Assembly (NCBI GenBank): GCA_022797145.1
Contig: JAAWKA010000005.1
Location: 15,874-79,873 of the forward strand
Reading direction: 5' to 3'
Origin: Clostridia bacterium
GTDB taxonomy: Bacteria; Bacillota; Clostridia; TANB77; CAG-508
Length of the DNA stretch: 64,000 nt
The notes beneath the pieces were generated by a model. The model ran no database searches. It was given only the letters and a program-made list of their open reading frames with translations, and had not been told where the DNA came from. A program made the translations under genes and the position numbers. Positions within the stretch are counted from its first letter, which is position 1. Each line of letters opens with the position of its first letter. Below, one piece after another: positions 14,012 to 37,195 of this stretch.

Positions 14012-14635
14012 TTACTGTTCTTCTTCATCATTTTCTTTTTTTAAGTCTTCTGCAATTTCTTCTTCAATGCTTTTATTTATTTCATCTTCCATTCCTAATA
14101 ATATCATATCATTATAAGATATATAAAAATCCCATTCATTATTTTTTCCATTAAATAATCCTAAATCTCTTATATCCTCCAATATGAAATCTTTTACAAA
14201 TGCTTCATAAAAATCTTCATATGTATCATATTCATAAACAGATTCTTCACCATTTAAATATTCTTTATAATTTTGAAGATTTATCTTCTTTTCATATTTT
14301 AAGTCTATAGCTTCATCTCTAATATAAGCATGAACGATTGAGTTATTATTTTGAGGACTTTGAAACAATACTTGTGTATCCATTGTTTTTATATAATTCT
14401 CGCAAATTCTTTTATAAAACAGTTCTCTAATATCTATTATTTCTTTTTTTTCTATCCAACTTGAAAGAACTTTTATTTCTGTATCTTTATATTTTCTTTT
14501 AAATCTTTCTAAATTTGAAATTACAACATCTTTATCAAAATATGTATAAATTGAAACAATAAAAGGCTTTTCATTAGGACTTTGGCATACTGCTAAAGCA
14601 TTATAATTCATTTTCTTCTTCCTCCTCATTTTCAT
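14012..14635 (-). CDS. Hypothetical, acidic C-terminal tail (likely start MNYNAL)
   Basis: Ends KENDEEEQ; last gene of the array. Confidence 0.75.
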   Translation of the reverse strand: MKMRRKKKMNYNALAVCQSPNEKPFIVSIYTYFDKDVVISNLERFKRKYKDTEIKVLSSWIEKKEIIDIRELFYKRICENYIKTMDTQVLFQSPQNNNSIVHAYIRDEAIDLKYEKKINLQNYKEYLNGEESVYEYDTYEDFYEAFVKDFILEDIRDLGLFNGKNNEWDFYISYNDMILLGMEDEINKSIEEEIAEDLKKENDEEEQ

Positions 14636-14939
14636 TATTCAAATTAGTTTCCTCCTGTTCTGCTGAAAACTGATATGGATTGAAGTATCCTTCTTGATAA
14701 TTATCTACTAATTTAATTAATTCTTGTTTAGACATATTACATATAGATCTCATCCAATGATTTGCAAGTAATGTTGCATTACCACAGTTTTCTCTACTAT
14801 CTCTTAATATTTTTATATCAGCTTTAAATTTTTCATATCCTTTGCAATCTTTTACGAGCATCATTTTTCTACTTAAAATTTTTGAAAATTCTTTATATTT
14901 CATACCATATGTTACATCTTTATATTCTTTCTTCTTCAT
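14601..14939 (-). CDS. Hypothetical, acidic tail
   Basis: Ends ENEEEEENEL. Confidence 0.75.
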   Translation of the reverse strand: MKKKEYKDVTYGMKYKEFSKILSRKMMLVKDCKGYEKFKADIKILRDSRENCGNATLLANHWMRSICNMSKQELIKLVDNYQEGYFNPYQFSAEQEETNLNNENEEEEENEL

Positions 14940-14950
14940 ACTTTCACATC

Positions 14951-15517
14951 CTAATCTTCTTGTAATTCAATTTCATCTTCTTCAGTTATATCTCTTGTGA
15001 TATATTTTTCATAAAATGTTAGTTTTAAAATTTCTAATTGCCTTTCATCATCATAATCATATTCCTTGCATATTTCTTTATAATTCTTATATAATTCTGG
15101 CTTTTTATCACAATGAGTTCTAAATTCTAATTTTTGAGATATTCTTTCCATTTCATTTATTAAAATATTTTGAGGATATTTATTCTTTAGACTACTGCAA
15201 GCAACATACATTCCATCACTTTTTACTTCTTTTTCAAACAGTTCAATATCTTCATTTGAAATATCATCATTTTCTTGTACTATAAGTGCTTTTGCAAACA
15301 ATTTAAAACCTTCATTTTTTGATTTGTATAACTCTTTTTGATAATTTACAACTTCAAGTTCATTCTTATTTTTTATAATATTTTCTGCATCTTCTTTTTC
15401 ATATCTTTTAGCATTTTTTATATCAAAAGTGTACATATCAGTTTTGCTTTCTAAACTTTTTATGTATGCTTGTGAATCTTTAAACTTAATAATATATTCT
15501 TTTTTCATTATAATCAC
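14951..15517 (-). CDS. Hypothetical, acidic tail
   Basis: Ends EEDEIELQED. Confidence 0.75.
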   Translation of the reverse strand: MIIMKKEYIIKFKDSQAYIKSLESKTDMYTFDIKNAKRYEKEDAENIIKNKNELEVVNYQKELYKSKNEGFKLFAKALIVQENDDISNEDIELFEKEVKSDGMYVACSSLKNKYPQNILINEMERISQKLEFRTHCDKKPELYKNYKEICKEYDYDDERQLEILKLTFYEKYITRDITEEDEIELQED

Positions 15518-15532
15518 TTCATTATTCTAAAT

Positions 15533-16003
15533 TTATTCCATTTCTTCCTCTTCTTGATTCTCTTTTATATAATCCTCCAACCAATCTTTCAAAATTTGTT
15601 TTATCTCTTCTTTATTTCCTCCTATTTCATCTATCCCATAATATACTTCACTATCACAATTTAAATAATCATCTTCTCCATTCTCCATTTCCTCATAATA
15701 GCATATTTCAAGCCAATTATTATGAATAACATTATACTTATTTTGAAATGTTCCATCTTCAATAGCTTTTTTTAACTCATCATCATATAAAGGGATTTCT
15801 ATGCCTTTTTTATTTTCAATCTCTACTTCTCCATTGACTTCAATAGTTATTAAGTATCCATTTTTCCTAAAACTAGAAATTATTTCATTATCTTTTAATA
15901 AAAGTTTATCACCTGTATAGTCTTCTAAATTATCTACTATTTTAAATATTTCTTTATTCTTTTCCATCGTTTTTTTACCTTTCTTCAGTCTCTTCATCTT
16001 CAC
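15533..16003 (-). CDS. Hypothetical, acidic tail (likely start MEKNKE)
   Basis: Ends QEEEEME. Confidence 0.75.
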   Translation of the reverse strand: MKMKRLKKGKKTMEKNKEIFKIVDNLEDYTGDKLLLKDNEIISSFRKNGYLITIEVNGEVEIENKKGIEIPLYDDELKKAIEDGTFQNKYNVIHNNWLEICYYEEMENGEDDYLNCDSEVYYGIDEIGGNKEEIKQILKDWLEDYIKENQEEEEME

Positions 16004-17125: not shown

Positions 17126-17920
17126 TTACCTCTCTTCTTCTAAATTTTCTGATAATGCTTCTAACATAGCTCGTATATTTTTATCTATCATATTTAATTC
17201 TTCTTCTAAACTCATATTATCTTTCAATTCTGAAAAACATTTTTCTGACAATTTGAGTAAATTATTATTTAGAAAATCAAACTCATTCTGTTTTAACCAT
17301 CCATCTTGTAAATATTCATCTAGTTTATTTTTAATAAATTCATCATAATTTTTCTTATCATTAATACAATCATTTATTTCATTTTCTAAAATATTACCCT
17401 TTATTTGTTCATAAAGAATTTCCTTTGTTATTTGCTTCTTATTTAATATTTCATCAATCCCTTCATCATCTCGTAAAATTTCAATTATTTGTTTCTGCAT
17501 TTCTTCTAGTTTTTCATAATCTCTAAATACCCATTCTCCATATCCTAATTCAAACATTAGATTTGCCAATCTTATTGAGTGCTTTTCTCCAACTTCTTTT
17601 ATGGTTATGTACTTTATATCTTCTGAATCTTTTTGTTTATTGTAGAATGTTTCTATTCTATTCTTTGCAAACTCTATTCCATCTTGCCATAGAGATAGGT
17701 TTCTTTTAAAAATTATATGTTGTTCTTCTTCATATCTTAATATGTCATCTACTGTAATTTCTTTAATTTTTTCTGTATTTATATAATCTATTTTTTCTTG
17801 CTCACTTTTGGTTACAATTCCTTGCATCCAATTTTGTACACATCTTTTAGCTTGTTCATATGTTACATCTTTCCAACCATTAAATAAGGTTTTTATTTGT
17901 ATTTTTCTTATTTTATCCAT
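17126..17920 (-). CDS. Hypothetical, acidic tail
   Basis: Ends ENLEEER. Confidence 0.75.
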   Translation of the reverse strand: MDKIRKIQIKTLFNGWKDVTYEQAKRCVQNWMQGIVTKSEQEKIDYINTEKIKEITVDDILRYEEEQHIIFKRNLSLWQDGIEFAKNRIETFYNKQKDSEDIKYITIKEVGEKHSIRLANLMFELGYGEWVFRDYEKLEEMQKQIIEILRDDEGIDEILNKKQITKEILYEQIKGNILENEINDCINDKKNYDEFIKNKLDEYLQDGWLKQNEFDFLNNNLLKLSEKCFSELKDNMSLEEELNMIDKNIRAMLEALSENLEEER

Positions 17921-17922
17921 TG

Positions 17923-18339
17923 TTATATTTCAACCTCATTACTTTCTTCATTTTTATTCTCTGTATTTGAATCAACAAATTTATTTTCTTTATATGCTTC
18001 TAAAAAAGCATCATAGTAGGGTTTTCCTTCATATCCATTAATCATAGCAACTATAATGTTAAGGTATTCATCTTGTGGATCATGACAAGGAATATCAATT
18101 ATATTATCAAGTACATTAAAATTTTCATACACAAAGCCAGATAAGTCTAAAGTTGCTACATTGGTTTTTTCATTATAATTAACTACTTCAACCTTTTCGG
18201 CAATAATCTCTAAAAGCATATTGTAAGAATCTTCTTCATTTAAATTATCATAGTCAATAGAAAAACAACATCCTGGTATTTCAACTTCAGTATCTTCTAT
18301 ATCTACTTCATTCAATTTTAAACTCTTTAATGTATTCAA
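17923..18339 (-). CDS. Hypothetical, acidic
   Basis: Ends EESNEVEI. Confidence 0.72.
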   Translation of the reverse strand: MNTLKSLKLNEVDIEDTEVEIPGCCFSIDYDNLNEEDSYNMLLEIIAEKVEVVNYNEKTNVATLDLSGFVYENFNVLDNIIDIPCHDPQDEYLNIIVAMINGYEGKPYYDAFLEAYKENKFVDSNTENKNEESNEVEI

Positions 18340-18350
18340 ATCTTTACCTC

Positions 18351-18599
18351 CTATGTTTCTCTTTCATTTTCTTCTTCATTTTCAAAAAATTTAAGATGAT
18401 TCTTTTCATCTATATATACAACTAAGGCTTCATATAGACTTTCTGTTGTTAAATTATAATCAGATTTTAAAAAGTCTTCTGCTATTTGTTTACACTTATC
18501 ATAAACAATATCGCATTCTGGATTGGAACTATTTGAGAACTCTTTATTTAATAAATCATAACCTAAAACAAACATTATATAATCTCTATCACTTTCCAA
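18351..18599 (-). CDS. Small hypothetical, acidic tail
   Basis: Ends EEENERET. Confidence 0.7.
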   Translation of the reverse strand: MESDRDYIMFVLGYDLLNKEFSNSSNPECDIVYDKCKQIAEDFLKSDYNLTTESLYEALVVYIDEKNHLKFFENEEENERET

Positions 18600-18600
18600 T

Positions 18601-19566
18601 TTACATTTCCTCCTCTTCTTCCTGATTGTAAAAATTATTAATTAAATCCATGTTCTCTACATATACATTTATAAAATAATTCATCATATAATCTTTTAAA
18701 CTTTCTTCACTTTTCATTATTTCATCATTTATAGGATCACTTGTTAAATTATCTGTTTTACATTCTTTATTATCATACAAATAAGATATAAGATATAATC
18801 TGCCTTCTTCTGATATTAATGCAACATTTAAAGGATTTTCATCAACTTTATCCATTTGCATTGTTATAAGTTCTCCATCAGATTCTAAATCTTTTATATT
18901 AGATTTTTTTAATTTTTCCCAGTCTCGTATTCCATCAAATGAAAAATATAAATTACCAGATAAACTAACTTCAGGTACATTAATATCAATTTTTTCAGTT
19001 GCTTTTACATCTATTTCCTCATAATCTTCATAATCAAATGTTATTTCTCTATCGTTGTATTGTTGCATAGCATTTTCTAAGGCTTCTTCTTTAGAAGTTG
19101 CCTCTATTGTAACAACTGTACTTGCTTTTTCTGTAAGCCTTACATCAAACTTTCTTTTACTATTTCTATATGTTTCAATAGGTTCTATTATTATTTTAAA
19201 ATCTTTTAGGATTTCATCAATATTAGGATTGTAATTTGACATTTCTTCTTGCCATTTATTTAATTTTGCTTTTGCAACATCAATACCAGCTTTAACATAA
19301 TATTTGATAGAAACACTTAAAGCAGCCATTTCAAAATCTCTTAATTTTATTTCTTGATTTAAGTCTTTATACAATTTTAGTAAGTTTTCTCTTTTGCAAG
19401 ATGTCTCATAGATTCTTTTATCATCTGCAACAACATATATCATGTCATTATCTGTATTTTCATTTATTACATGGTCCAATTCTTCTAATGGATAATCCCA
19501 ATTATTTTCTGGTTTATAATATTTTGATTTCAATAATAAATCTTTATTTCCTAATACAAAAATCAT
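18601..19566 (-). CDS. Multidomain protein with internal DpnD/PcfM-like domain, acidic tail
   Basis: KFDVRLTEKASTVVTIEATSKEEALENAMQQYNDREITFDYED; ends QEEEEEM. Confidence 0.75.
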   Translation of the reverse strand: MIFVLGNKDLLLKSKYYKPENNWDYPLEELDHVINENTDNDMIYVVADDKRIYETSCKRENLLKLYKDLNQEIKLRDFEMAALSVSIKYYVKAGIDVAKAKLNKWQEEMSNYNPNIDEILKDFKIIIEPIETYRNSKRKFDVRLTEKASTVVTIEATSKEEALENAMQQYNDREITFDYEDYEEIDVKATEKIDINVPEVSLSGNLYFSFDGIRDWEKLKKSNIKDLESDGELITMQMDKVDENPLNVALISEEGRLYLISYLYDNKECKTDNLTSDPINDEIMKSEESLKDYMMNYFINVYVENMDLINNFYNQEEEEEM

Positions 19567-19639
19567 TTACAAATTCCTCTTTATATAAAATTAAAAGTTA
19601 TAAGTTTATGCGTGTACAAACCTATAACTTCATAATATT

Positions 19640-19685
19640 ATTATAAATACTTGTATTTGAGCTTTCAATTCCCTTTTTATTCCCT
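19640..19685 (-). promoter_or_regulatory. Sigma-A promoter with GGGAA-N6-GGGAA box (P1)
   Basis: AGGGAATAAAAAGGGAA-TTGAAA-17 nt-TATAAT, followed by hairpin at 19593-19631. Confidence 0.75.
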
Positions 19686-20846
19686 AACTTCATCTTCTTC
19701 AGTATCTTCAATTTTAACTCCATATAATTCGGATATTTCACTAATGGTATCTATAATATCTGTTTTAATCTCTTCGTATGACATTTTTTCTTGAAGATGA
19801 TTCATTTCGATTACTTCTAGTTTATCTAAAATTGCTCTTTTTAGTTCAAATGTAAAAAATGTATTTGCTAAATCTAAAGATTCAGCACTAGTTTTTATTT
19901 TAAGTATATCTATTTTTTCCATATTTTTTATAATATCAACTAATTCTTGTGTACTCTCTATTTGGCTATTATCTAATTCATATAGTAAAAAATGTACACC
20001 TTTTGAGTAGTTATGGTCAAAATAGTGCCAAATATCTTCTTTAGTTGTTAGTCCTTTTGTAAAATCCCAATATGTACCATCTAGTATTTCTTCACCCTTT
20101 TTTTCTATAAAGGGTATATCTGTAAGATCCTCCCACTTTTTTTCTAAAAAGCGATCAATATATTTTTGTTCCAACCTAAATTTTAAATTAGATATATTAG
20201 ATACTTTAATAATATTTTTAGATACAAGATAATTTAATTCAGTAATTGAATAATCAGCTAACTCTATATCTTTGTTTAATTCAAATTTATTTCTATTTGT
20301 GTTTAATTGATTTTCAAATGTACTAACAATCTTTTCTTCTAATTCTTTTTTTATCATTGTAGTTCCTTTTATTCTTTGTGTCATTTCATTTAATCCATAT
20401 TTGTCCCATACATATCCTATAATATCATTATACATATAACTGATATTAGTTTTTGGATCATCTATAATATCTCCATATTCCACTTTCCATGTAATAAGAA
20501 TCTCTAATAATTTATCTTTAGTTATTGCATATAATTGTTCAAGTGCTTTATTGTCTCCATTATTCATAAACATGTCAATAACTTCTAGTATTTTAGGATT
20601 ATCTTTTATCCCATTTTCAAGTGCTTTTCTAGCAACTAATAAGTCTAACTTTTCATTTACTATGTATTCATGTATATATTTTTCAGGATTATTTACTTCT
20701 TCTGTTTCTTTATGCAAAACCATATTATCAATTTCATCTATAAAATCTGGATCTGAATAAAATTGTATAAAATATCCCCCTGTATTTTCTCCAACATCAT
20801 CACATGTAGTATAATAAACATCATTATATTTGTTTTCTATTCTCAC
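19677..20846 (-). CDS. Multidomain hypothetical, acidic tail
   Basis: Contains W.DLTDIP...DIWHYFD...GV module; ends EEDEVRE. Confidence 0.75.
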   Translation of the reverse strand: MRIENKYNDVYYTTCDDVGENTGGYFIQFYSDPDFIDEIDNMVLHKETEEVNNPEKYIHEYIVNEKLDLLVARKALENGIKDNPKILEVIDMFMNNGDNKALEQLYAITKDKLLEILITWKVEYGDIIDDPKTNISYMYNDIIGYVWDKYGLNEMTQRIKGTTMIKKELEEKIVSTFENQLNTNRNKFELNKDIELADYSITELNYLVSKNIIKVSNISNLKFRLEQKYIDRFLEKKWEDLTDIPFIEKKGEEILDGTYWDFTKGLTTKEDIWHYFDHNYSKGVHFLLYELDNSQIESTQELVDIIKNMEKIDILKIKTSAESLDLANTFFTFELKRAILDKLEVIEMNHLQEKMSYEEIKTDIIDTISEISELYGVKIEDTEEDEVRE

Positions 20847-21943: not shown

Positions 21944-21970
21944 CTTTGTTATACCTCTTTTCTCTTTTTA

Positions 21971-22696: not shown

Positions 22697-23698
22697 TTAT
22701 TCTTGTATTTCTTCTTTTTCTAATTCTAAATTGTCAAGCCAATCAATTGCTTCTAAATTATTATTTATCAGTAAACCATCAGGTCCACTTGCTATAATTC
22801 CATCTTCTCTAATGCAATATTTGGGAATATCAATATTGTGTTTTTGACAGAAATCTTCTAGTTCTTCTTTAGAGTTTATTATTTGTACTAACTTAGGATT
22901 AATAACTCTATATGCACAATTAAAATCAAATCCTCCTGTCAAGTCTATTTCAAAATTAGTTTCCAAATCGTTTGGATCTTTTACTAATAAAAATTGATGT
23001 TCATATAATTTAGAACTTGCTTCCAAAGTACATTCAAAAATATAAGAATATTTTTCTGTTTCTTTGTTTGAATAGTAACTAAATTCTTCTATTCCATTTT
23101 GTTGATTAACAATATTTCCAGAAAAATAGTTATTGAAATTAATAGTTTTCTTTAGTTCGTTTTTTGCCTCTTCAAAATCCGAATACACATTTAATTGAAA
23201 AGGTTCACCTTTGTTGTAATCTTCTTCTGTTTCATATATACGAATCTCATATTTGCATTCTTCATCTCTTAATTTATCAATTTCTTCTCCTTGTAAATAT
23301 CTTATTGCATATTCCTTTTCTTTAAATTCTTCTGTCCACATATTTCCATTTCTATTATCTATAGCAATAAAACTATCATCTTTTTTATCAACCATTAAAA
23401 AAGATTGCTTTTCTTCATCTGTAAATTCTTCCTGATTATTTAACTTTTCAATTAATATATTAAATTCTTTTTCAGTAATTGTTTTTATGTCTTTATCTTG
23501 TATTACTTCATTTTCAAACTCTTTTAATTTCTGTTCTTCTATAATTTCTTGATAATCATTTTCAAAAAATTCATATATTGATACTGGTCGCATTCCTTCT
23601 TCGTGTGTGTCAAAAAATTCTACAACATAATTGTTGTAATATCCTAATAAACTCAACAAATCCTCTTTATCCATATTTTCTATTTGTTCTGTGGTCAT
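22697..23698 (-). CDS. Multidomain hypothetical, acidic tail
   Basis: FIAIDNRNGNMWTEEF module; ends EKEEIQE. Confidence 0.75.
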   Translation of the reverse strand: MTTEQIENMDKEDLLSLLGYYNNYVVEFFDTHEEGMRPVSIYEFFENDYQEIIEEQKLKEFENEVIQDKDIKTITEKEFNILIEKLNNQEEFTDEEKQSFLMVDKKDDSFIAIDNRNGNMWTEEFKEKEYAIRYLQGEEIDKLRDEECKYEIRIYETEEDYNKGEPFQLNVYSDFEEAKNELKKTINFNNYFSGNIVNQQNGIEEFSYYSNKETEKYSYIFECTLEASSKLYEHQFLLVKDPNDLETNFEIDLTGGFDFNCAYRVINPKLVQIINSKEELEDFCQKHNIDIPKYCIREDGIIASGPDGLLINNNLEAIDWLDNLELEKEEIQE

Positions 23699-24153
23699 TA
23701 TATTTCCTCCTCTTCTTCTCTATCATTTGAAGTTTGGTGGTATTTTTGTAGTGCTAATTCTAATCCTCTTTGTATATTTGTATTTGAATTAATATCCTTA
23801 ATTGTTAATCCACAAGCCATTAAAGTATCTCGCAACTCTCCAGTATAACCATATTCGTGATTTCCAAGTTCTTCTTCAAACATTCCCTGAATAAATTTTT
23901 CCCCTGTTATATCATTTTTTATTGCTTCTTTTAATTCTTTATAGTGATTATTGTTCATATCATTATATGCTTGCTTGTCCTCTATTTTTACGAAACCACC
24001 AAAACCTATTGATACTATTTTATCTTTATCATTTTCAGCTAATCCCAATTTTTTTAGTCCTTCTTTTATGTCTTCTTCTGTAAATGCAAAAGCTACTGGA
24101 AAATTATTAAATTCCGCTTGATGCCTATTCTTCATTTCTACATATGTTTCCAT
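23698..24153 (-). CDS. Conserved phage/ICE hypothetical, acidic tail
   Basis: YVEMKNRHQAEFNNFPVAFAF...ELGNHEYGYTG; ends REEEEEI. Confidence 0.78.
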   Translation of the reverse strand: METYVEMKNRHQAEFNNFPVAFAFTEEDIKEGLKKLGLAENDKDKIVSIGFGGFVKIEDKQAYNDMNNNHYKELKEAIKNDITGEKFIQGMFEEELGNHEYGYTGELRDTLMACGLTIKDINSNTNIQRGLELALQKYHQTSNDREEEEEI

Positions 24154-24172: not shown

Positions 24173-25126
24173 TTATTGTTCTTCTTCGTTTTCTTCGCTT
24201 TCTTCTGGTTCTTCTTTATATAATTCTTCATTGATAAATTTTACAAAATCTACTGCTGTTTTTTTATAACCTGCTGCGTGTATTAAATTTTCAATTTTTA
24301 CACTAAAATCCTTATCTATTTCTCCATTGTCATATTGTTCTAATACTTCTATTACTATATAAGGTTTAATATTTTTTATGTTTATTCCATTCAATATCTC
24401 GTCTATTTTCTTAGTCATCCAATTAATATCTTCTTCAAAGAAACACATATCACTACCATAATAAAAATTACCATTTTCTTCTCTAACCGAATCAACATAT
24501 CCTATAGCAATTTCCCTTTTCATTTCTTCTGATAACATATTAACTAAGTCTTCTTTATTTATTTCATCATCCATTAAATAATCAAATAATGTGTCAATAT
24601 TTTCAAATTTTAAAACATTGTGATTTTCTAGTGTTTTTTCACCTAAATCATTAAAAATAATATCGTTTAAATTCTTGTTTATTCCTGTTCTTTCTTCAAA
24701 GACTTTACTCGCTTCAGTTAAACTTGTATAATATGAACCTTGCAACCAGTCAAAATATGTTTTACTTTTATGAACTCCTAGTCCATTAGTTACTACATAT
24801 GGAGATTCTTCAACACCTAATTTCTTTATTAAAGCCCAGTCTTTTTCTTTTTCTAAAATAATTGCTTGTCCAAAGTTAATATCTATAATAGCATCTCTGA
24901 CTAAGTCTTCTTCTCTTACACAATTTCTATATTCTCTTACTTCGTGATCCTTAAAATCTTCGTAATCTAATACAATTTCACCAGCATTATATTTATCTTC
25001 TACTTTTTCTAATGCTTCTTCTAAATTGTTAGCTTCAATATCTTCTACTCTTTGTGATATTTCTTCTATTTCGATTTGGAATTTTTTCATATATGTTCCT
25101 CCTACTTTACTATATTTCTTCTTCAT
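24173..25126 (-). CDS. DpnD/PcfM-domain multidomain protein, acidic tail (likely start MKKFQIEI)
   Basis: KFQIEIEEISQRVEDIEANNLEEALEKVEDKYNAGEIVLDYEDF; ends EENEEEQ. Confidence 0.8.
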   Translation of the reverse strand: MKKKYSKVGGTYMKKFQIEIEEISQRVEDIEANNLEEALEKVEDKYNAGEIVLDYEDFKDHEVREYRNCVREEDLVRDAIIDINFGQAIILEKEKDWALIKKLGVEESPYVVTNGLGVHKSKTYFDWLQGSYYTSLTEASKVFEERTGINKNLNDIIFNDLGEKTLENHNVLKFENIDTLFDYLMDDEINKEDLVNMLSEEMKREIAIGYVDSVREENGNFYYGSDMCFFEEDINWMTKKIDEILNGINIKNIKPYIVIEVLEQYDNGEIDKDFSVKIENLIHAAGYKKTAVDFVKFINEELYKEEPEESEENEEEQ

Positions 25127-25880
25127 TATTTTTCTCTAACATTTCATTCATTTGTGTTTGATAATTTTCTATGTCCTTTAAGTTTATCCATTCTGGTTTT
25201 TCTTCTTCAGAAAAAGAATTATATATTTTTTTCATTTCTGCTATGTGTTTATCTACATCTTTATAATATAAATGACCTACAAAACCATTTCCATTACCTA
25301 AAAAATAATCACAATCAGCTCTTAATCTATCTAACATCATATAATTATGTTGGTTGGCTTTTTCTTTTTCATAATTAGGATCATCTTTTGGATTATTCAC
25401 TAATTCATATTTTTCCAAATCTTCAACCTCTCTCATAGGTTCTTCGTAATCTTTTGAGCAATACATTAAATGTACTTCACCTATATTTTGATTTCCATTT
25501 TCACAATATAAATTCTCATTTTCATCTTCATAATAGTAATTGTTATTTTCTTCATATTTATATATTAATTTGATTTTTTCATTTAAGTATTTTTCTATAT
25601 TGCTATATCTATTTTTTATACTAGCATTTTCATTAAAATCATTAACTATATGTAAAAGAGCTTCTTTAATTCCTATGTATCTTCTACTCCATGTCTCGTT
25701 TGTTCCTATCTTTTTACCATTAATTGAAAATAGAAATGGTGAATACTTTTCTTCTTCTCTTGTTATTGTAATATCCCAAGTATTTTTGTATAAAAATGTT
25801 ATTTGTTCACCGATTTTTAATTCATTTTCTTTATCAATTATTTCTTTTGCTAAATTTCTATTAAATTTTATTTTTTCCAT
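25110..25880 (-). CDS. LPD11 (large polyvalent protein-associated domain) protein, acidic tail
   Basis: YMMLDRLRADCDYFLGNG...HL...HIAEMKKIYNSF...KPEWI; ends NNEEEI. Confidence 0.8.
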   Translation of the reverse strand: MEKIKFNRNLAKEIIDKENELKIGEQITFLYKNTWDITITREEEKYSPFLFSINGKKIGTNETWSRRYIGIKEALLHIVNDFNENASIKNRYSNIEKYLNEKIKLIYKYEENNNYYYEDENENLYCENGNQNIGEVHLMYCSKDYEEPMREVEDLEKYELVNNPKDDPNYEKEKANQHNYMMLDRLRADCDYFLGNGNGFVGHLYYKDVDKHIAEMKKIYNSFSEEEKPEWINLKDIENYQTQMNEMLEKNNEEEI

Positions 25881-28490: not shown

Positions 28491-28888
28491 ACTATCTCCT
28501 CTTCTAGGCAGTCAATGTCTTCATATTGTTTGTCTTTTTCTATTTCTTCTTTATATGTCATATCCCAATCTTTAATCTTTAAAGTTTCAACTCCCCAACC
28601 TATTTCAAAAGTTATATATAAATCTTTATATGGAATTGCAATATTATGTGTATATATTTTATTTCCCCAAATTGTATCTTTTGTTAATTTATATAGTATT
28701 GAACCTTCTTCAAATTTGTCATCATTTATTTCTTTATATATCTTACCTGCAATATCATAAGCTAGTTCACTAAGACTATAACAGGAATATCCTGTATTTA
28801 TAATCTCATCTATGCAACTATAATAAAAATCGTGTAATGCAAATCCATATTTTTCTGTAAATTCATTTTCACTCAAATTTAAACTCAT
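28487..28888 (-). CDS. Hypothetical, acidic tail
   Basis: Ends LEEEIV; ATGA overlaps at both ends. Confidence 0.72.
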   Translation of the reverse strand: MSLNLSENEFTEKYGFALHDFYYSCIDEIINTGYSCYSLSELAYDIAGKIYKEINDDKFEEGSILYKLTKDTIWGNKIYTHNIAIPYKDLYITFEIGWGVETLKIKDWDMTYKEEIEKDKQYEDIDCLEEEIV

Positions 28889-29739: not shown

Positions 29740-29761
29740 TATATTTTTTACCTTATTACTT

Positions 29762-30890: not shown

Positions 30891-30892
30891 CT

Positions 30893-32116
30893 TTATAACT
30901 CCTCACTTTCTTCATCTTCTTCTCCACCAAACATATAATAAATTTTTTTAAGTTCTTCATCTTCAGTTTTTATAGCTTCATCCTTTATATCTTCTAAATT
31001 ATCAATATTTTCTAGTGTTTTAATTCTTTCATAATCTTGCCATAAATTTGTAAATTCTTTAGAATACCAACCTGGATATTTTTCTTTTTCTTGTTCTTGC
31101 TCAATTTTAAAATTATTTTTTTCCAAAGTTGTTATTCTTTCAATACATTCTTTTATAGTATCTGGCATATAATATTCAGTTTCATTTCTATACTTATCAA
31201 ATTTATCTTTTAATTCTTCTTTCAGTTGATCCACTTTATGTAATATAATATCTTCTGTTGTTCTTATTATTTGTTTTTCTATATCACTAAAATCTTCTGA
31301 ATTTATTGTAACCTCCGATTTATTAAAAGTTACTGCATTTAAATTTTCAAGTTCATTACTTGAATGCAAACTAATTTTTTTACCATATATATTAAATATT
31401 TCATCTAGTTCTGCTTCTGTTTTTATCTTGTTTCCATCATTAAATATTAAATTAACATTTTTCTTTTCTTTAAGAAAAGTATTTATCTCTGCCAATTTCA
31501 AAATAAATTTTGGAGCTTTCTTATGCTGTATTTCTTTTAAAATCAATCCTGCTTTAATTTCATTATCAAATAATCCCTTTTTATAGAGTTCTTCTAAATT
31601 ATGTATTTCTTCAGTATATGGATCAAAAATTATTGAATCACCATTATCTAGTGCATAAACAAGTTTGCTTGTATTGAAATTTATTTTTGTATTATAAGAA
31701 AGGCTACATTTTATATCAGTATCTAAACTTTGTAATTTTCTTATAGATATGTCTTTATATAACTCGTAGCTTGAATAATTATTATTCTTAAATATTTCAA
31801 ATGTCTTATCACTTATAAATTTTTGTATTCTATTATGAATCAAAGAACTGTACTCTAATATGTAATATCTCTTTAATAATTCTTGTTCAAATTTATAATA
31901 TTCTTTATTTTCTTTATCAAAATCACTTCTACTATGCACATATAAAGTATCTTCTTTACCATCCATATAAAAATAACTAAACATTGAATAACTATTATCT
32001 TGAAACAGCCTAAATTCTTCTTTATTCTCACTCACAAAATTAAATTTTCCTATTTTAATTATCATAAAATTACTCCTCCAAGTCTTGCGTGTCTTCCTTT
32101 TCTGGATAATACTCAT
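30893..32116 (-). CDS. Hypothetical, acidic tail (likely start MIIKIG)
   Basis: Ends EEDEESEEL. Confidence 0.75.
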   Translation of the reverse strand: MSIIQKRKTRKTWRSNFMIIKIGKFNFVSENKEEFRLFQDNSYSMFSYFYMDGKEDTLYVHSRSDFDKENKEYYKFEQELLKRYYILEYSSLIHNRIQKFISDKTFEIFKNNNYSSYELYKDISIRKLQSLDTDIKCSLSYNTKINFNTSKLVYALDNGDSIIFDPYTEEIHNLEELYKKGLFDNEIKAGLILKEIQHKKAPKFILKLAEINTFLKEKKNVNLIFNDGNKIKTEAELDEIFNIYGKKISLHSSNELENLNAVTFNKSEVTINSEDFSDIEKQIIRTTEDIILHKVDQLKEELKDKFDKYRNETEYYMPDTIKECIERITTLEKNNFKIEQEQEKEKYPGWYSKEFTNLWQDYERIKTLENIDNLEDIKDEAIKTEDEELKKIYYMFGGEEDEESEEL

Positions 32117-32609
32117 TTAAATAATTATCTATAATTCCATTCATAGTTTCATTAAAGAAGATATGATCTGTAATCTTGTCTGCTATATCAACTATGTTAT
32201 CTAATTCTAATGGAATATTCCTTCCATCTTCATTCATATCTTCTATTCTTGTAACAACTTCACTAGCAATACCTTTTAATAGAAATGTTTCATTAAGCTC
32301 TTTTATTTGTTTAAAAATTTCTTTTGAATTTTCTATTTCTACAGTCATTTGCTTTATAAAGTTATTACTATTTTTAATAAAACTTTCAAAATTTTCTTTT
32401 TCTTCTTGATTTGTATAAAATATCGTTTGAAAATATAATCCATTTTTATTATTTTCAGTTTCATAGAATAATGCTTTTTCTCCTAAATTTTCAAATGAAA
32501 TAAGATTTATATTGTGATTTTTTAAATAATCTTTTATTCTTTTAATTTCTTCGCTTATTTCTGTTTCTTTCATATTAGCTTTTAATATTAATATGTTCTC
32601 ATATTTCAT
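32070..32609 (-). CDS. Ribosomal protein bS6-like N-terminal domain fused to an acidic helical domain
   Basis: MKYENILILK...ENLGEKALFYE...GLYF...F...IKQMTV follows the S6 pattern YE..I.......WG.R.LAYEI....GYY....F......R. Confidence 0.65.
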   Translation of the reverse strand: MKYENILILKANMKETEISEEIKRIKDYLKNHNINLISFENLGEKALFYETENNKNGLYFQTIFYTNQEEKENFESFIKNSNNFIKQMTVEIENSKEIFKQIKELNETFLLKGIASEVVTRIEDMNEDGRNIPLELDNIVDIADKITDHIFFNETMNGIIDNYLNEYYPEKEDTQDLEE

Positions 32610-32956
32610 AATTCTTCTTCCTCTTCTTTTATATCTAATTCATACCTGTCAAATTCATCTATTAAACCTTTATCAACTAAAAACCTTTCAAATATGTCAA
32701 TTCTTCTTTGCAATGAAAATATTTTGTCTTTTTTTTCTTTTTCCACTAATTCTTTCAATTTAAGTTTTGATTTTAGATTATCAAGTTCTAAGGATATTTT
32801 ATATTTTTTGTTTGCTATTCTTCCTGCTTCTCTGTTCATATCAGCTTCTTTATATTCTATATATTCTCTGTCTAATTCTTCATACTGATTAGATAAAATA
32901 TCTATTTGCTTTTTAATTCCTTCTATACTAGTTAAATCTATCTTTTCTTTATTCAT
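32606..32956 (-). CDS. Coiled-coil hypothetical, acidic tail
   Basis: Ends KEEEEEL. Confidence 0.72.
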   Translation of the reverse strand: MNKEKIDLTSIEGIKKQIDILSNQYEELDREYIEYKEADMNREAGRIANKKYKISLELDNLKSKLKLKELVEKEKKDKIFSLQRRIDIFERFLVDKGLIDEFDRYELDIKEEEEEL

Positions 32957-34166
32957 TTTCTAATACCTCATTTTTACCATTAACAAAGTATTCATCTGGA
33001 AAATCTTCTAAATATCCTTCTAACCAATCATCTTGAATTAATGAACATACAAATTGCCAATCAACTTGTTCAAAAACATCTTCAGCCATTATTTCAATGT
33101 CCTCAAAAGGAACTTTGTTTAAATCTACTCCATTAACTACCAAATAATCTCTAACATCTTCACATATTCCTTCAAAAGTAATACCTGCATCATTTATATT
33201 ATTTTCATCAAGTTCAGATACATAGCATATTCCTTCTCGTTTATAAAAATTCTCAAAATTCTTATAGATATAACCTTGCCTAAAATATTCTTTTTCAATT
33301 GTTCCATCTGGCAATATTTCTCCTATCTGTCTGCACATAATTTCTTTTACATATTTATTTATGTCTCGTATTGAATCTTCTTTATTTACAAATAGGGTAT
33401 TTACTTTTATTAATTCTTTTTCCTTTTTAATGTAAATGTTTAACTGTTTTTGGTTATCTGGTAATTTATACCTTTTATCAGTTTTATCTGGAAATTTACA
33501 GTAAAAATCTTTTATCTTAAAAAAGCCTTTTATCTCATTTATTGGTTCTAAATTAGCTTTTGCTTCTTCAATGGATTGTATGATATTTTCATAAGTAGTA
33601 TTGTTGCTTTTGGCTATATCTTGAATATCTCTATCATTTTCTATAATTTCTTTCATTTGTTCTTTATAATCTTCTAAAGTATCTTGCTTGAAGATTTTCC
33701 AGCACGAATATTCGCAATTAAACATTATATTTGCTAATTCAATCGAAATTTCTCTACCTAATTCCTCTAAGGTCATTATTTCATCTTTTTCATAGTCTTG
33801 TTTTTCTTCTTCAACATGAAGAAGATCGACTTCATATTTATTTACATTATTAAAAAAATCTTCTTTTTCATTACTAAAGTATAGGTAATCTAATCTATTA
33901 TCAATCTCTTCTTTTGCTTTTAGTATATTAACAGACATGAAAGGATCTTTAGGAACATAACCTTTAGCAGCTACATCTTCCACTTTAACAATAAAACCTC
34001 TTTTTAATGATTCTAATGTTGTTGCATATTCTTCATGCTTAAATGTGAAATTGTAAGAATCAATTAAACTAACTTTATCCATTAGCAACTTATTTATATT
34101 ATTTTCCTTACTAAAATCTTTTTTTAATATTTCTTTACATTTCTTATAATCAGTAATATTATTCAT
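32949..34166 (-). CDS. Multidomain hypothetical, acidic C-terminus
   Basis: QGYIYKNFENF...ICYVSE module; ends NEVLENE. Confidence 0.75.
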   Translation of the reverse strand: MNNITDYKKCKEILKKDFSKENNINKLLMDKVSLIDSYNFTFKHEEYATTLESLKRGFIVKVEDVAAKGYVPKDPFMSVNILKAKEEIDNRLDYLYFSNEKEDFFNNVNKYEVDLLHVEEEKQDYEKDEIMTLEELGREISIELANIMFNCEYSCWKIFKQDTLEDYKEQMKEIIENDRDIQDIAKSNNTTYENIIQSIEEAKANLEPINEIKGFFKIKDFYCKFPDKTDKRYKLPDNQKQLNIYIKKEKELIKVNTLFVNKEDSIRDINKYVKEIMCRQIGEILPDGTIEKEYFRQGYIYKNFENFYKREGICYVSELDENNINDAGITFEGICEDVRDYLVVNGVDLNKVPFEDIEIMAEDVFEQVDWQFVCSLIQDDWLEGYLEDFPDEYFVNGKNEVLENE

Positions 34167-34167
34167 T

Positions 34168-35009
34168 TTATTCCTTTCTTAAATTGCAACAATCATCTTT
34201 ATTTACATTTACATTTCTTTTCCAATACAAATAATGATTAGAAACATCTTCACATATTGTTACTTCTTCAAATCCAGTTATTTTCTTTAACATTTTAATC
34301 TTATCTTTTAACTGTAAATGACAATATCCACTTTGTTTTAAAGTATATTTAGAATAATCTAAGTCAAACCATCTCTTTATCCATGAATTTACTCTCAAAA
34401 ATTCAATTAAAATTTTGTCACATTTAATGTTGTTTAAAATATCAAAGTCTATATATTGTTCAATAAATGGTGAAAGTCTAACCTGTACATCAAATCCATG
34501 TTCTTGTAATTTTTCAATGGCTTCAATTCGTTTACTTGGAACAGTTGCTTTTTCATAAGTAAGTGATAAATCATCTTGTGTAGTTGTTATTGTAATTTGA
34601 ATATGTGCTAACTTTTTGTCTAATATTTTTATATATTCATCATCAGCTATTAAATTTGATTTAGTAACTATTAAATAACCTATTCCATACTTATTTAATA
34701 GCTTTATCGTGTTATATGTAACTTTATATTTCTTTTCAATTGGTTGGAAACAATCGGTCATTCCGACCTAATCGCAATATTGTTCCTTTAGGTAATTTTT
34801 TTATTTTTCTCTCTATCTTGCTTGTATCAGCTACACTCGGATCATTTGGATTCCATAAATTTCTAAAATCTAATAATGATTTTGCATAACAATATTTGCA
34901 ATCATGCTGACAGCCACAACCATATGTATCAAGTCGTGTAGGATATTTGCATTTACTTCCTTCATTTCCTTCTACTGTTTTATAAAAACTCTTAAATTCT
35001 TTGCTTCAA
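34168..35009 (-). CDS. Radical SAM protein (spore-photoproduct-lyase-like); needs +1 shifts near 35003 and at C-GGA 34765
   Basis: RLDTYGCGCQHDCKYCYA (CxxxCxxC), RLG-[C]-GMTDCFQP, IVTKS, VRLSPFI; AGGAGG RBS before TTG. Confidence 0.75.
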
Positions 35010-35026
35010 TTTTCCTCCTATTATAA

Positions 35027-35098
35027 TGGTTGCAAAGGTGGGTACTGCCCCCACATCGCCAGCAAAGCAGACTGGAATGTTCTTTACACTACATTGCG
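35027..35098 (-). ncRNA. Non-canonical tRNA-like RNA (72 nt, encoded CCA)
   Basis: Cloverleaf CGCAATG-TA-GTGT/AAAGA/ACAT-T-CCAGT/CTGCTTT/GCTGG-CGAT-GTGGG/GGCAGTA/CCCAC-CTTTGCA-A-CCA; GC-rich patch in AT-rich DNA. Confidence 0.7.
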
Positions 35099-35156
35099 AT
35101 AAATAAAAAAACTCACAAGTCACTTTTTCAAGCAACTTATAAGTTTTGATATTAAC

Positions 35157-35202
35157 ATCATAATATTTTATATAGGGGTTTTCAATTCCCAAATTTTTCC
35201 CT
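35157..35202 (-). promoter_or_regulatory. Sigma-A promoter with GGGAA box (P2)
   Basis: AGGGAAAAATTTGGGAA-TTGAAA-17 nt-TATGAT, then hairpin plus U-tract at 35103-35148. Confidence 0.8.
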
Positions 35203-35208
35203 ATTTAT

Positions 35209-36183
35209 TCATATGGAGTTTTCTTCCTCAATATCATTAGAGTCATTTATATCCATTAAAAAACTTTCATAATTAGAATAACATAAAAAGTATAATACTG
35301 AATCCAAATTTAATTTTCCTTCATAACTTTTTATATACTGCTTTTCTTCTTTTGCTTTACTATATAATCTAAATTCTGATAGTTCTTTATTAATGTCAAC
35401 TTCTAATTCTAATTTATATTGAGTTCCATTATCATATTGATTTGTAATTTTTTCTATTAATTTACAATCATAATCAAAGAAATCCAATATATCCTGTTTG
35501 TCGATATACACATAATTTTGACTTGTTTTAGTATAAATTTGTTTTAATTCAAAAATATCCTTTTCTATATGTTTTTCTACTTCGTTTTGCTTTTCTTTTA
35601 CATAATTACATAATTTTTCCTCAATTTCTTCCCAATGTGCATTAACAAAATTTCTCTCATTTTTAGAGTAACAATCAATACATTCTAATACTAGATCTTC
35701 CTTAATTAAATGATGTACTCTAAACAATCCATTCATCTTTTTTTTCTCATACACTATAGTAAAGTATAAATATTTATCACCTTTTTTAAAATCAATATCT
35801 TTAAATTGAACTTGGTAACGGTTATCTTCATAAGCATCATAAACCTTTGCAATTTCTTGCCAATCTTTTGCAGTAATAATAGTTTGTAATTTTATATGTG
35901 TATCAAATTTGCGAGCTATAGTATTAATGTCTGCTACAAAATCAAGTAATAAATCTGGAGTAATATCTTCTCGTATATCACAAAACAACAAACTACATTG
36001 TTCTTTATTTACTATAATATTTTCTTTATCAAAATTAAATTTAATCCATTCAACCCACTTTTTAGCACTATTTTTAGCACATATTGCAATTTCATTATTA
36101 GATATTTCTTTAAGTTTCAATCTGTATTTCGCACAAATTATTTTTATACCTTCTTCACATTGTTTTTTTCTCTGCTTTTCCAT
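35209..36183 (-). CDS. Hypothetical, acidic tail
   Basis: Ends DIEEENSI. Confidence 0.75.
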   Translation of the reverse strand: MEKQRKKQCEEGIKIICAKYRLKLKEISNNEIAICAKNSAKKWVEWIKFNFDKENIIVNKEQCSLLFCDIREDITPDLLLDFVADINTIARKFDTHIKLQTIITAKDWQEIAKVYDAYEDNRYQVQFKDIDFKKGDKYLYFTIVYEKKKMNGLFRVHHLIKEDLVLECIDCYSKNERNFVNAHWEEIEEKLCNYVKEKQNEVEKHIEKDIFELKQIYTKTSQNYVYIDKQDILDFFDYDCKLIEKITNQYDNGTQYKLELEVDINKELSEFRLYSKAKEEKQYIKSYEGKLNLDSVLYFLCYSNYESFLMDINDSNDIEEENSI

Positions 36184-36198
36184 CTATAGTTCCTCCTA

Positions 36199-37195
36199 TT
36201 ATATTGTTTCTTCTTCATCTTCTTCATTCTCATTTATTTTAGTATTTTTATCTATAAAATTTTCAATAATTTCATTATCTTTATTTTTATATTTACTGCA
36301 AATCACATTGCCTAAATCATAATCCATATCAATAATTTCTGAACTACCATTGTATATACTGTTAAACTCTTCTTCATTTACTTTTATGCAAGATATTATT
36401 CCATATGTATTATTATTTCCATTTTTTACATAGTTATCTATAAATTCTAATGCTTCATCATATTTTTTAGTAAATCCCCAATTTTCATTATAATATCCAT
36501 TTTTATAATCCCAAACTTCATTATAACATTCATATTCTGGATCATCTTTATCTAATAAAACACCAACTTCAAATTGATATGCTTCGTATTTGTCATTTAT
36601 TATATTATCCATTTTTATCTCTAATGCTTTTTCTATATCTATTATTACTTCAGGAACAAAATGATATTTCAAAACATCTATAAGATTAGGTTGCAATTCT
36701 TCTTTTCCACAAAAAAATATTTCATCTTTAGAAAATACTTTTTCATCTTTTTCAAGCATAAACATAATTTTTAAATTTTCAAATGGATTCAATGGATAGC
36801 TAGGACCATTTCTTGGTTCATACATTTGTATATCATCTTTTAGTTCCATATAATCTTCTATATACTTTTTGTTTAATTCATATAAATTACAGCATTCATC
36901 TTGTTTTAAATTGTTTAATTCTGATTTTAATATTATAGCTTTAAATTTGCTATCAATTTTTTCTAGTTCATTAATAGCATTAATTATTTGACAGTTTTCT
37001 TCAAAATTAACATACTTGTTTTCATTAAAAACATTTTTTAATATTAATTTATATTTTTCTTTTAGTTCTTCGCTTATATTATTTGTTCTAAATAACCTTA
37101 AATACTCATCTTCAACAAACTTCTTTGCTTCTTCTGGAATTGGTTCAAATATTCTTAATCCGATTAAGTATCTTTTTATATTCTTCTTTATTCAA
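36199..37195 (-). CDS. Hypothetical, acidic tail; 331 aa after one +1 shift at C-GGA (37162)
   Basis: TTG AAT AAA...CTT AAT C GGA TTA AGA opens 104 stop-free codons into ORF 36199..36849; ends EDEEETI. Confidence 0.72.

Follow-up and report, generated by a model that had tools for sequence, protein, structure and literature searches.

The stretch of DNA analyzed here, 64,000 nucleotides (nt) long and referred to as the window, corresponds to bases 15874-79873 of contig C23 in a Clostridia genome of 1.65 Mb (25% G+C, 45 contigs; 99% complete, 0.67% contaminated). From about 14.0 kb to the end of the window, and on to the end of the contig, nearly everything belongs to one co-oriented block on the minus strand that carries the parts of an integrative and conjugative element. 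This report concerns a short glutamate-rich tail at the C-terminus of most of the proteins encoded by a long array of accessory genes in this element, and what that tail may be for.

In transcription order, the part of the block beyond the window encodes a helix-turn-helix (HTH) protein, a ParB-N protein, a ribbon-helix-helix protein, a relaxase of the MobA/VirD2 type, and a coupling protein of the VirD4 type. Within the window these are followed by TrbL_4, a pilin-like protein of the type IV secretion system (T4SS), a PrgI-like protein, a VirB4-like ATPase, an M23 peptidase, another HTH protein, and an SSB; then come a shorter block of tailed genes, a sortase, three surface proteins, and the long array itself, which runs from 36849 to 14012. 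According to Pfam and NCBIfam scans, the T4SS is of a minimal Gram-positive type with a VirD4-like coupling protein. With a relaxase, a coupling protein, and a T4SS in one co-oriented block beside a disrupted chromosomal gene, the region is an integrated conjugative element, as a preliminary description of this DNA had taken it to be. The disrupted gene encodes a uracil-5-methyltransferase (tRNA/rRNA) and is the likely integration target, because the array ends next to its C-terminal fragment (Table 1). The integrase and the other end of the element lie off the contig, outside what was seen, and the remaining half of the methyltransferase gene was not seen either. The G+C content is 0.28 in the T4SS module versus 0.24 in the array.

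A glutamate tail at the C-termini of the array proteins

Open reading frames (ORFs) were predicted by a mechanical rule (the longest ones of 60 residues or more, taken greedily and without overlap), which gave 34 minus-strand ORFs in the array at 14012-37195 and, as a host set, 1638 ORFs of the genome outside the element. The last ten residues of the array ORFs contain on average 5.09 Glu or Asp, compared to 1.32 for the host ORFs. At least five acidic residues are found there in 23 of the 34 array ORFs versus 33 of the 1638 host ORFs (Fisher p = 1.6e-28), and at least four in 29 versus 78. The earlier observation that nearly every ORF here ends in acidic residues is thereby confirmed, and its figure of about 31 tailed proteins is a fair count. 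The five array ORFs with fewer than four acidic residues are two weakly tailed ORFs, the fragment of a radical-SAM gene, and two doubtful small ORFs. Tails are indeed present throughout the range 14012..37195 to which they had been assigned, but that range was too narrow, as they also occur on all six ORFs of the second, shorter block (44391-49314) and on the ORFs at 53974-54690 and 60786-61247. Counts given below for 40 array proteins include the second block.

The acidity is concentrated at the very end of the proteins. Only 1.8% of 8213 internal ten-residue windows of the tailed proteins hold at least five acidic residues, and Glu blocks, defined as five or more Glu among eight residues, are absent from all of 7933 internal windows but present at 18 of 40 C-termini; in 110 homologues of two families, such Glu blocks were found in 17 of 25,202 internal windows versus 34 C-termini. 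The array proteins are acidic overall (19% Glu and Asp in their bodies versus 13%; median isoelectric point (pI) 4.9 versus 7.7), but the tail is not mere overall acidity, because internal windows of the same proteins are so rarely as acidic. Glutamate is the commonest residue at every position from -2 to -8, in 15-26 of the 40 proteins, and position -1 is held by Leu in 10, Ile in 8, Glu in 7, and Gln in 4. The frequent terminal Leu, Ile, Met, or Val noted previously is borne out by 21 of 40 array proteins versus 443 of 1638 host ORFs (p = 9e-4). Lys, which ends more host ORFs than any other residue (327 of 1638), closes none of the 40. That the terminal Leu or Ile might be forced by an ATGA stop/start overlap was considered and rejected: the overlap requires only that the last codon end in A, and Leu or Ile also closes tails that are followed by a spacer before the next gene.

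At the BLAST level, the array proteins are mutually unrelated, as had been stated, with only two weak domain-sharing pairs. All proteins with the tail lack predicted transmembrane (TM) segments, and none of the element's proteins with a membrane or signal segment (T4SS membrane parts, adhesins, sortase) carries it. The recognizable DNA-processing and motor proteins, that is, the relaxase, the ParB-like protein, the SSB, VirB4, and the coupling protein, are likewise without it, as is the conserved soluble protein at 54982-56139, and the untailed genes listed in the preliminary description (radical SAM, surface proteins, sortase, SSB, regulators, and T4SS parts) all prove to be so. Such marking, confined to soluble proteins, is what one would expect of a label that sorts soluble cargo.

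The tail and the ribosome-binding sites

At many array junctions, GAGGAG or GAGGAA precedes an overlapping ATG by a few bases, and spacers of 7 nt or less are found at 22 of 40 junctions. Overlap with the Shine-Dalgarno (SD) sequence of the next gene does not account for the tail, however, in keeping with the earlier view that it could not do so fully. For this analysis the anti-SD was taken as the generic core, since the 3' end of the organism's 16S rRNA was not found in the assembly. Tails on coupled host genes had been named as the observation that would favor SD overlap, and they are not there: among 184 such ORFs, the mean is 1.68 acidic residues where the next start overlaps (n = 114) and 1.46 where it lies within 7 nt (n = 70), barely above uncoupled genes. 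A cruder distance measure gave a mean of 1.51 for 343 coupled host ORFs. In the array, the mean is 5.15 for overlapping genes (n = 13), 5.0 for spacers of 0-7 nt (n = 9), and 6.0 for 8-14 nt (n = 3); with spacers of 15-30 nt, which hold a separate canonical SD such as TAGGAGGA, it is 5.7, and all ten ORFs reach at least four. Four tails have no coupled partner: those of the last gene (14012-14635), of 19677-20846 (110 nt to the next gene), of 35209-36183 (followed by a hairpin), and of 47440-48540 (294 nt). The first three had been singled out before as lacking a coupled downstream start, which the spacers, the hairpin, and a promoter-like site support. The radical-SAM ORF (34168-34761), on the other hand, is coupled yet ends without a Glu block, and no GAA tract was found in the leaders of five starts that have no tailed ORF just upstream.

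The choice of Glu codons separates the two signals. GAG makes up 0.105 of Glu codons in the bodies versus 0.24 in all tails, 0.34 in tails that must hold the next SD (19 genes, p = 6e-9 versus body), and 0.17 in those with no such requirement (13 genes, p = 0.10 versus body). The constraint on synonymous sites that had been proposed as a sign of overlap is thus present at the coupled junctions but not at the uncoupled ones. Because GAG is significantly enriched only at coupled junctions and the tail is present anyway, the SD is layered on the tail and is not its cause; where the next start lies within SD distance, an SD is placed in the tail by the use of GAG over GAA. A bare requirement for a purine tract is unlikely as well, since the tract is always read as Glu, with the Lys and Arg frames unused, and since Lys codons are depleted (17 of 480 in tails versus 957 of 8533 in bodies).

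Two further features bear on how the array is transcribed. Its only 110-nt gap contains a strong promoter-like site (19668-19640, an 11-of-12 match), and a terminator-like hairpin of 18 bp (35147-35108) follows 35209-36183; the array probably comprises at least three transcription units. The longest-ORF starts of several array genes give N-termini rich in Lys and Arg (MKMRRKKK.., MRRKKKL..; for example, at the 14601-14635 junction). These N-termini come from reading the GAA tract of the upstream gene in a different frame, so translation probably begins a few codons downstream.

Homologues, related elements, and gene content

The comparison with host proteins and phage homologues that the preliminary description had suggested shows the tail to be specific to the element. 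For the DUF7659 protein, all eight homologues of at least 65% identity end in a Glu run; among 14 distant homologues one is tailed, and the other 13 end soon past the domain. Of 88 LPD11 homologues, 60 carry four or more acidic residues among their last ten, typically as ..EK(N/S)EEEEI. Remote LPD11 homologues end in ..KKSK, ..KVRR, or ..LKNS, and remote and phage ones stop right after the domain. Untailed phage copies are ORF23 of Psychrobacillus phage Perkons and ORF145c of Aeromonas phage Aeh1 for LPD11, and a homologue of DUF7659 on a faecal phage contig; the neighbors of the phage homologues are untailed too, even in a phage of 28.5% G+C. In the family of 20843-21943, which has no Pfam name, all 28 full-length homologues (97 to 40% identity) are tailed, with variants such as ..ESEEEEM, ..NCEDEIL, ..EEEEEYEPTD, and ..ESVEEEI; the composition of the tail is conserved, whereas its exact sequence is not. 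In an AlphaFold model of the DUF7659 protein, the mean predicted local distance difference test score is 93 up to residue 140 and falls to 64 and then 49 in the tail, which is probably flexible. Fusions (P0044, P0105) and domain swaps of LPD11 are seen among its homologues, and in P0105 and P0106 it is fused to an S6-like domain. The S6-like protein of the array itself (32070-32609) has a 90-residue extension plus the tail; the host S6 (C25:12357-12650) is untailed.

Relatives of the element were found in other Clostridia assemblies, several of them labelled as mouse-gut. Their layout is the same: one tailed block precedes the sortase and another follows the LPXTG adhesin. Across three of these relatives (G001, G003, and L006), 53 of 73 ORFs end with four or more acidic residues (mean 4.25), yet orthologues of just 8 of the window's 40 array ORFs are present there or in L001. 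The gene content of the array turns over and the tail is kept. The orthologues of 35209-36183 in G001 and G003 lie immediately upstream of the relaxase gene, and the protein may be a relaxosome-associated one that moved into the array here. Among the closest T4SS matches in the plasmid collection is pBMB67 of Bacillus thuringiensis, with a VirB4 of about 34% identity. It resembles the element in its backbone order (MobP-type relaxase, VirD4-like protein, TrbL, PrgI, a 200-residue protein, VirB4) but not in its C-termini, as none of the 61 ORFs within its first 50 kb reaches five acidic residues in the last ten, their mean being 1.33.

Outside such elements, and within the reach of the probes used, the tail was met with only sporadically. 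Sampling of 399 genomes of the class turned up the LPD11 protein in 2, one of them being the genome of the window itself. No dense second array was found elsewhere in this genome, where contigs C18, C30, C31, C11, and C1 hold scattered single tails only. A mobile-looking region (G000:C18:8655-24332) has a few isolated tailed ORFs, such as the one at 15125-15958 (..EQTEEEEEM). A lone chromosomal SSB-like gene (G000:C1:162749-163438, 229 residues) ends in ..EKEEENEEENKEAI, a Glu tail outside any array, and its product has a long N-terminal extension resembling that of the element SSB. A probe for the exact pattern E5-I-stop matched five stretches in viral contigs and 14 in genome contigs, with at most one tailed ORF per locus; it detected no arrays in these collections, but as a single codon spelling it would miss most of them.

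Pfam names 5 of the 34 array ORFs, by LPD11, DpnD/PcfM (twice), DUF7659, and an S6-like domain. The LPD11 and DpnD/PcfM domains reported before are therefore present, in one and two ORFs, respectively, with one of the DpnD/PcfM matches above and the other just below the cut-off, and the other ORFs match no such family. Matches to PHROGs are few in the array and point to families without an assigned function, and NCBIfam gave only sub-threshold matches, including those of the S6-like and radical-SAM ORFs. Protein Atlas look-ups for 22697-23698 and 20843-21943 yielded nothing usable (template-modelling scores of 0.43 or less on poor models); the weak neighbors include LPD11, LPD25, and MPTase-PolyVal clusters and are leads only. 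A fold search of the DUF7659 model against the PDB gave no match at E <=0.001.

Two ORFs look like gene remnants inside the element: the truncated radical-SAM protein, whose matches to PA0069-type models are confined to their middle part, and a partial nitroreductase at 51837-52346. Just outside the element, at 6691-11232, lies a defence-type cluster consisting of an AbiEi/AbiEii pair, a protein with HSDR_N and STAND NTPase domains, and a 553-residue protein without a family.

Table 1. Features of the window, with the C-terminal sequence (last ten residues) and the number of Glu and Asp residues (E/D) in it
Feature	Position	Strand	C-terminus	E/D	Remarks
Uracil-5-methyltransferase (tRNA/rRNA) gene, C-terminal fragment, 157 residues	13167-13640				Abuts element end; Pfam
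Tailed ORF, 207 residues	14012..14635	-	LKKENDEEEQ	5	Last element gene; no same-strand gene after
Tailed ORF, 112 residues	14601..14939	-	ENEEEEENEL	7	
Tailed ORF, 188 residues	14951..15517	-	EEDEIELQED	7	
Tailed ORF, 156 residues	15533..16003	-	KENQEEEEME	6	
Tailed ORF, 209 residues	15975..16604	-	MCEDEETEER	6	phrog_33611 (no assigned function)
Tailed ORF, 111 residues	16591..16926	-	QIEEEENGLL	4	
Tailed ORF, 63 residues	16929..17120	-	SELEDEQERD	6	
Tailed ORF, 264 residues	17126..17920	-	ALSENLEEER	4	
Tailed ORF, 138 residues	17923..18339	-	KNEESNEVEI	4	
Tailed ORF, 82 residues	18351..18599	-	ENEEENERET	6	
Tailed ORF, 321 residues, weak DpnD/PcfM	18601..19566	-	FYNQEEEEEM	5	PF14207 E=2.4e-5, just below cut-off
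Tailed ORF, 389 residues	19677..20846	-	EDTEEDEVRE	7	Spacer 110 with promoter-like site
Tailed ORF, 366 residues	20843..21943	-	ENIESEEEEM	6	All full-length homologues tailed
Tailed ORF, 235 residues	21971..22678	-	SNDDSEEIEQ	5	Spacer 27 with own SD
Tailed ORF, 333 residues, very acidic	22697..23698	-	LELEKEEIQE	5	pI 4.27
Tailed ORF, 151 residues, DUF7659	23698..24153	-	SNDREEEEEI	6	PF24692 E=1.9e-45
Tailed ORF, 317 residues, DpnD/PcfM	24173..25126	-	EESEENEEEQ	7	PF14207 E=1.2e-10
Tailed ORF, 256 residues, LPD11	25110..25880	-	MLEKNNEEEI	4	PF18824 E=8.6e-28
Tailed ORF, 195 residues	25902..26489	-	IEEEEDEETI	7	Spacer 21 with own SD
Tailed ORF, 270 residues	26506..27318	-	ELEQEEIEEL	6	
Tailed ORF, 258 residues	27322..28098	-	IITEETEEVL	4	
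Tailed ORF, 132 residues	28092..28490	-	DNESEEEEIC	6	
Tailed ORF, 133 residues	28487..28888	-	DIDCLEEEIV	5	
Tailed ORF, 284 residues	28885..29739	-	ENKIDEEEEL	6	
Weakly tailed ORF, 317 residues	29762..30715	-	INVTEEETTL	3	
Doubtful small ORF	30696-30890	-		0	
Tailed ORF, 407 residues	30893..32116	-	GEEDEESEEL	7	
Tailed ORF, 179 residues, ribosomal-S6-like domain	32070..32609	-	EKEDTQDLEE	6	PF01250 E=7.5e-14
Tailed ORF, 116 residues	32606..32956	-	LDIKEEEEEL	6	
Weakly tailed ORF, 405 residues	32949..34166	-	NGKNEVLENE	3	
Radical-SAM fragment, no Glu run	34168..34761	-	KDDCCNLRKE	3	PF04055, NF033668 partial matches; spacer 1
Doubtful small ORF	34992-35192	-		0	Overlain by hairpin
Tailed ORF, 324 residues	35209..36183	-	SNDIEEENSI	4	Terminator-like hairpin after
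Tailed ORF, 216 residues	36199..36849	-	ENEEDEEETI	7	First array gene; spacer 15 with own SD
Surface proteins (3): Ig-like; SpaA with LPRTG; thioester domain + SpaA	37247..42738	-		0-1	Untailed; Pfam; signal/TM segments
Sortase	43852..44394	-			Untailed; PF04203 E=6e-23
Second block, tailed ORF, 178 residues	44391..44927	-	KGEKEEDEVL	5	
Second block, tailed ORF, 125 residues	44902..45279	-	EVDEEEEEIE	8	
Second block, tailed ORF, 285 residues	45257..46114	-	NIEDEESEEL	6	
Second block, tailed ORF, 344 residues	46111..47145	-	GLEEMEEESI	5	
Second block, tailed ORF, 366 residues	47440..48540	-	LENEEGENEQ	5	Spacer 294
Second block, tailed ORF, 254 residues	48550..49314	-	DQIEEEVAEA	5	
Element SSB, 215 residues	52522..53169	-	..EENVRKEV		PF00436 E=3.7e-20; no Glu tail, no canonical SSB tip
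Tailed ORF, 238 residues	53974..54690	-	DCDNEEEEEM	7	Beside T4SS genes
VirB4-like ATPase gene in 5 frame pieces	57266..59024	-			tblastn with intact G001 homologue: frames -3,-1,-2,-3,-1; NF045975 on fragments
T4SS membrane parts (PrgI-like, pilin-like, TrbL_4)	59744..62450	-			Untailed; Pfam; TM segments
Tailed soluble ORF, 153 residues	60786..61247	-	DKEEDEELEI	7	Amid T4SS genes

What might read the tail

A C-terminal tag thus exists on the array proteins, and it is positional, specific to the element, and independent of translational coupling. We consider it probable that it acts at the level of the protein, as a modular tag of some kind consisting of about five to eight residues, mostly Glu and usually closed by one aliphatic residue. 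The element family would put this tag on soluble accessory proteins, allowing many unrelated proteins to be handled by one common reader. The preliminary description had proposed a shared translocation tag, of which the shared, modular, protein-level appendage on soluble accessory proteins stands on the homologue, positional, and SD evidence; the translocation is weighed below.

The reader, the transfer, and the roles of the proteins are matters that we infer. The most likely reader would be the substrate-recruiting side of the conjugative T4SS, either the VirD4-type coupling protein or an adaptor. The tagged proteins would be made in the donor from the long transfer operon and then passed into the recipient with the DNA, where separately tagged small proteins would do the job proposed elsewhere for single giant polyvalent proteins. 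We favor this reading because the genes lie in transfer operons of a conjugative element, because a C-terminal, unstructured, compositional signal is the form known for T4SS substrates, and because the E Block of Legionella has the same design, conjugative systems move many proteins, and polyvalent proteins are predicted to be delivered. By analogy with these systems, reading of the tag by the element's T4SS, with export to the recipient, seems a reasonable candidate at somewhat less than even odds. For the fuller proposal, in which the poly-Glu tag would be an export address that injects some forty soluble proteins along with the DNA as an "unbundled polyvalent protein" arsenal, we put the probability at about 0.35. 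A putative anti-defence role for this arsenal is suggested only by its context.

Each of the precedents resembles the tail in some respects only. The Legionella E Block, cited in the preliminary description, is a real precedent in kind: close to the C-terminus, 3-6 residues out of 6-10 are acidic, and a hydrophobic residue follows towards the end (Huang et al. 2010, PMC3096851). As in the array, it is a Glu-rich block on many unrelated proteins with a terminal hydrophobic residue, defined by composition and not by a fixed sequence. However, as described there, the Legionella block lies at about -25 to -7, occurs on roughly half of the substrates, and tolerates Asp, and the system is a type IVB one of a Gram-negative pathogen with eukaryotic target cells (PMC3096851). 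The array tail lies at -2 to -8, is nearly universal in the arrays, strongly prefers Glu, and belongs to a Gram-positive VirD4-type element. An acidic block of this kind within the C-terminal 30 residues and the terminal hydrophobic residue are thus found in the array and the type IVB machinery is not, which makes the finding an E-Block-like tag in a different machine and lineage. Conjugative T4SSs, for their part, move many proteins, as in the "conjutome" of the F-like pED208 (PMC11288057), and element-encoded or travelling proteins pass to the recipient alongside the DNA (PMC11288057, PMC8406263), but the accessible text of PMC11288057 describes neither an acidic tag nor an array of tagged genes, and transfer of the present array proteins is putative. 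For polyvalent proteins, among which the LPD domains were defined, delivery together with the DNA has been predicted (Iyer et al. 2017, PMC5512222). The array shares LPD11 with them and is likewise a changing collection of conflict-type domains on an element with a T4SS, a class for which early action in the recipient has been predicted. Polyvalent proteins are single polypeptides of 2-15 domains, for which the part of PMC5512222 that was available mentions no acidic tail, whereas the array consists of stand-alone ORFs of 63-407 residues that are tailed individually. Full-text literature searches, which did not cover most subscription journals, turned up no account of acidic C-terminal tails on conjugative-element proteins, nor did a search on protein transfer by Gram-positive systems.

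A number of observations weigh against export. The relaxase, which is the one certain T4SS substrate and which the preliminary description had suggested checking for the same tail, ends in ..DWFAL without it. The signals described for conjugative systems in the accessible part of PMC11288057 are positively charged, hydrophobic, or internal, and not acidic. Pfam scans of the element ORFs detected no Dot/Icm families, and the T4SS models found by Pfam and NCBIfam are T4SS-DNA_transf/TraG-D_C, TrbL_4, PrgI, T4SS_pilin, and VirB4-like only. The scans against Pfam, PHROGs, and NCBIfam gave no functional assignment for any array protein. The Glu:Asp ratio of 6:1 in tails versus 1.6:1 in bodies is what a purine tract would give likewise. 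Above all, the machinery of this copy is damaged. The VirB4 gene has four frameshifts, which are not an artefact of a single assembly, as the same VirB4 words recur at full share in runs of a study not flagged as the source. Genetic code 4 (TGA = Trp) was tried as the cause of the split and rejected, since the pieces stay unjoined. The coupling-protein gene has at least two frameshifts and lies in at least two pieces (L008 ~932-2142, on G000:C23 beyond the window), and each of the three relatives examined also has it with a broken reading frame, the breaks falling at three different places. In G001 (L015 ~14620-14710) and G003 (L024 ~11600-11650), a +1 shift is shared inside the conserved D-P-K-G-E motif with differing bases nearby, which could be inherited decay or recoding; in G002 (L053) the shift is elsewhere, at about residue 384. 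The frameshifts cluster in the two T4SS ATPase genes, and every other element gene is open, including all 40 array ORFs. With VirB4 and the coupling protein frameshifted, this copy can hardly export by itself, and a tag for export alone should be dispensable here, yet the array is open. All 30 of 30 bins over 17300-37290 are covered by contigs assembled from three metatranscriptome libraries of two studies, which, given that DNA carry-over is possible, is only a hint of expression. Co-folding of a 381-residue coupling-protein ORF with the last 47 residues of 32606-32956 scored 0.00 in both runs, with no controls, and is evidence neither way.

The untagged relaxase, the broken ATPases, and the open array feed two rivals of the export reading, in both of which the tail would be used without secretion. 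The stronger of these, although unlikely, is that the tail is a docking peptide for a hub in the producing cell, such as a common basic site on the element SSB, a host DNA-handling protein, or a DNA-like decoy. The SSB C-terminal tip, itself a docking peptide, is built in this way, as are phage replication-protein tails: both finish in an acidic stretch capped by a hydrophobic residue. The element SSB lacks the usual acidic tip (that of the host ends in ..NDDLPF), the lone SSB-like gene on contig C1 carries a Glu tail, the array proteins are acidic overall, and the coverage by RNA-library contigs is a weak hint in the same direction. The array tails nevertheless have Glu and not Asp, end in Leu, Ile, Met, or Val, and sit on some forty unrelated proteins instead of one hub protein. 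They lack the Pro-Phe of the SSB tip, with Phe as the last residue in 0 of 40, and the mimicry of an SSB tail that had been raised as an alternative, which would call for acidic residues followed by (L/I)-P-F, is not borne out, since no array tail ends in P-F. It is also hard to see why about 40 unrelated proteins should share one partner unless that partner sorts them.

Less likely still is a nucleotide-level feature of long operons, in which a GAA-rich, structure-free tract would aid re-initiation or ribosome loading, or would serve as a microhomology linker for the shuffling of cassettes, with Glu as the harmless frame. The enrichment of GAG in tails and particularly at coupled junctions, the excess of Glu over Asp, the tight spacing of over half of the junctions, the turnover of array content with the junction type kept, and the fusions and swaps among LPD11 homologues all fit such a feature. 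Coupled host genes have no such tails, however, and the tails are equally rich where the SD lies in the spacer or no gene follows; starts without a tailed ORF upstream lack the GAA tract, and the radical-SAM gene is coupled and untailed. Moreover, the tract is never read in its Lys or Arg frame, aliphatic residues are favored at the last position over Lys, Asn, Phe, and Tyr although the codons of these are just as AT-rich, and the exact tail sequences are not conserved.

Charged C-terminal residues stabilize proteins in Escherichia coli, but a general stability or solubility tag that shields against C-terminal degron proteases and aggregation in any host, without a specific reader, is the least probable of the three, for although the tail sits on all kinds of soluble proteins, is conserved in composition and not in sequence, is modelled with low confidence and thus probably flexible, and persists without a working T4SS, it is missing from other soluble element proteins (relaxase, ParB-like protein, SSB, ATPases), from host proteins, and from homologues in an equally AT-rich phage, and its preference for Glu over Asp and for an aliphatic end speaks for recognition rather than bare charge.

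How conjugative systems choose their protein substrates is poorly understood, above all in Gram-positives. If the export reading is true, no Gram-positive T4SS would have had a defined substrate signal before this tail, which would be the convergent counterpart of the Legionella E Block, and the content of the array could be freely swapped, as any gene would become cargo on gaining an eight-residue tail. If the reader is not the T4SS, it would be something without a known counterpart, and if the tail is not an export signal, there is still an unexplained labelling of the accessory proteome of one mobile element. The array is also an example of a coding tail and a ribosome-binding site superimposed on one stretch of bases. 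A short, nearly uniform, transplantable tag on dozens of natural proteins would make substrate choice directly testable, and it would give a simple sequence rule for finding co-transferred proteins in gut metagenomes.

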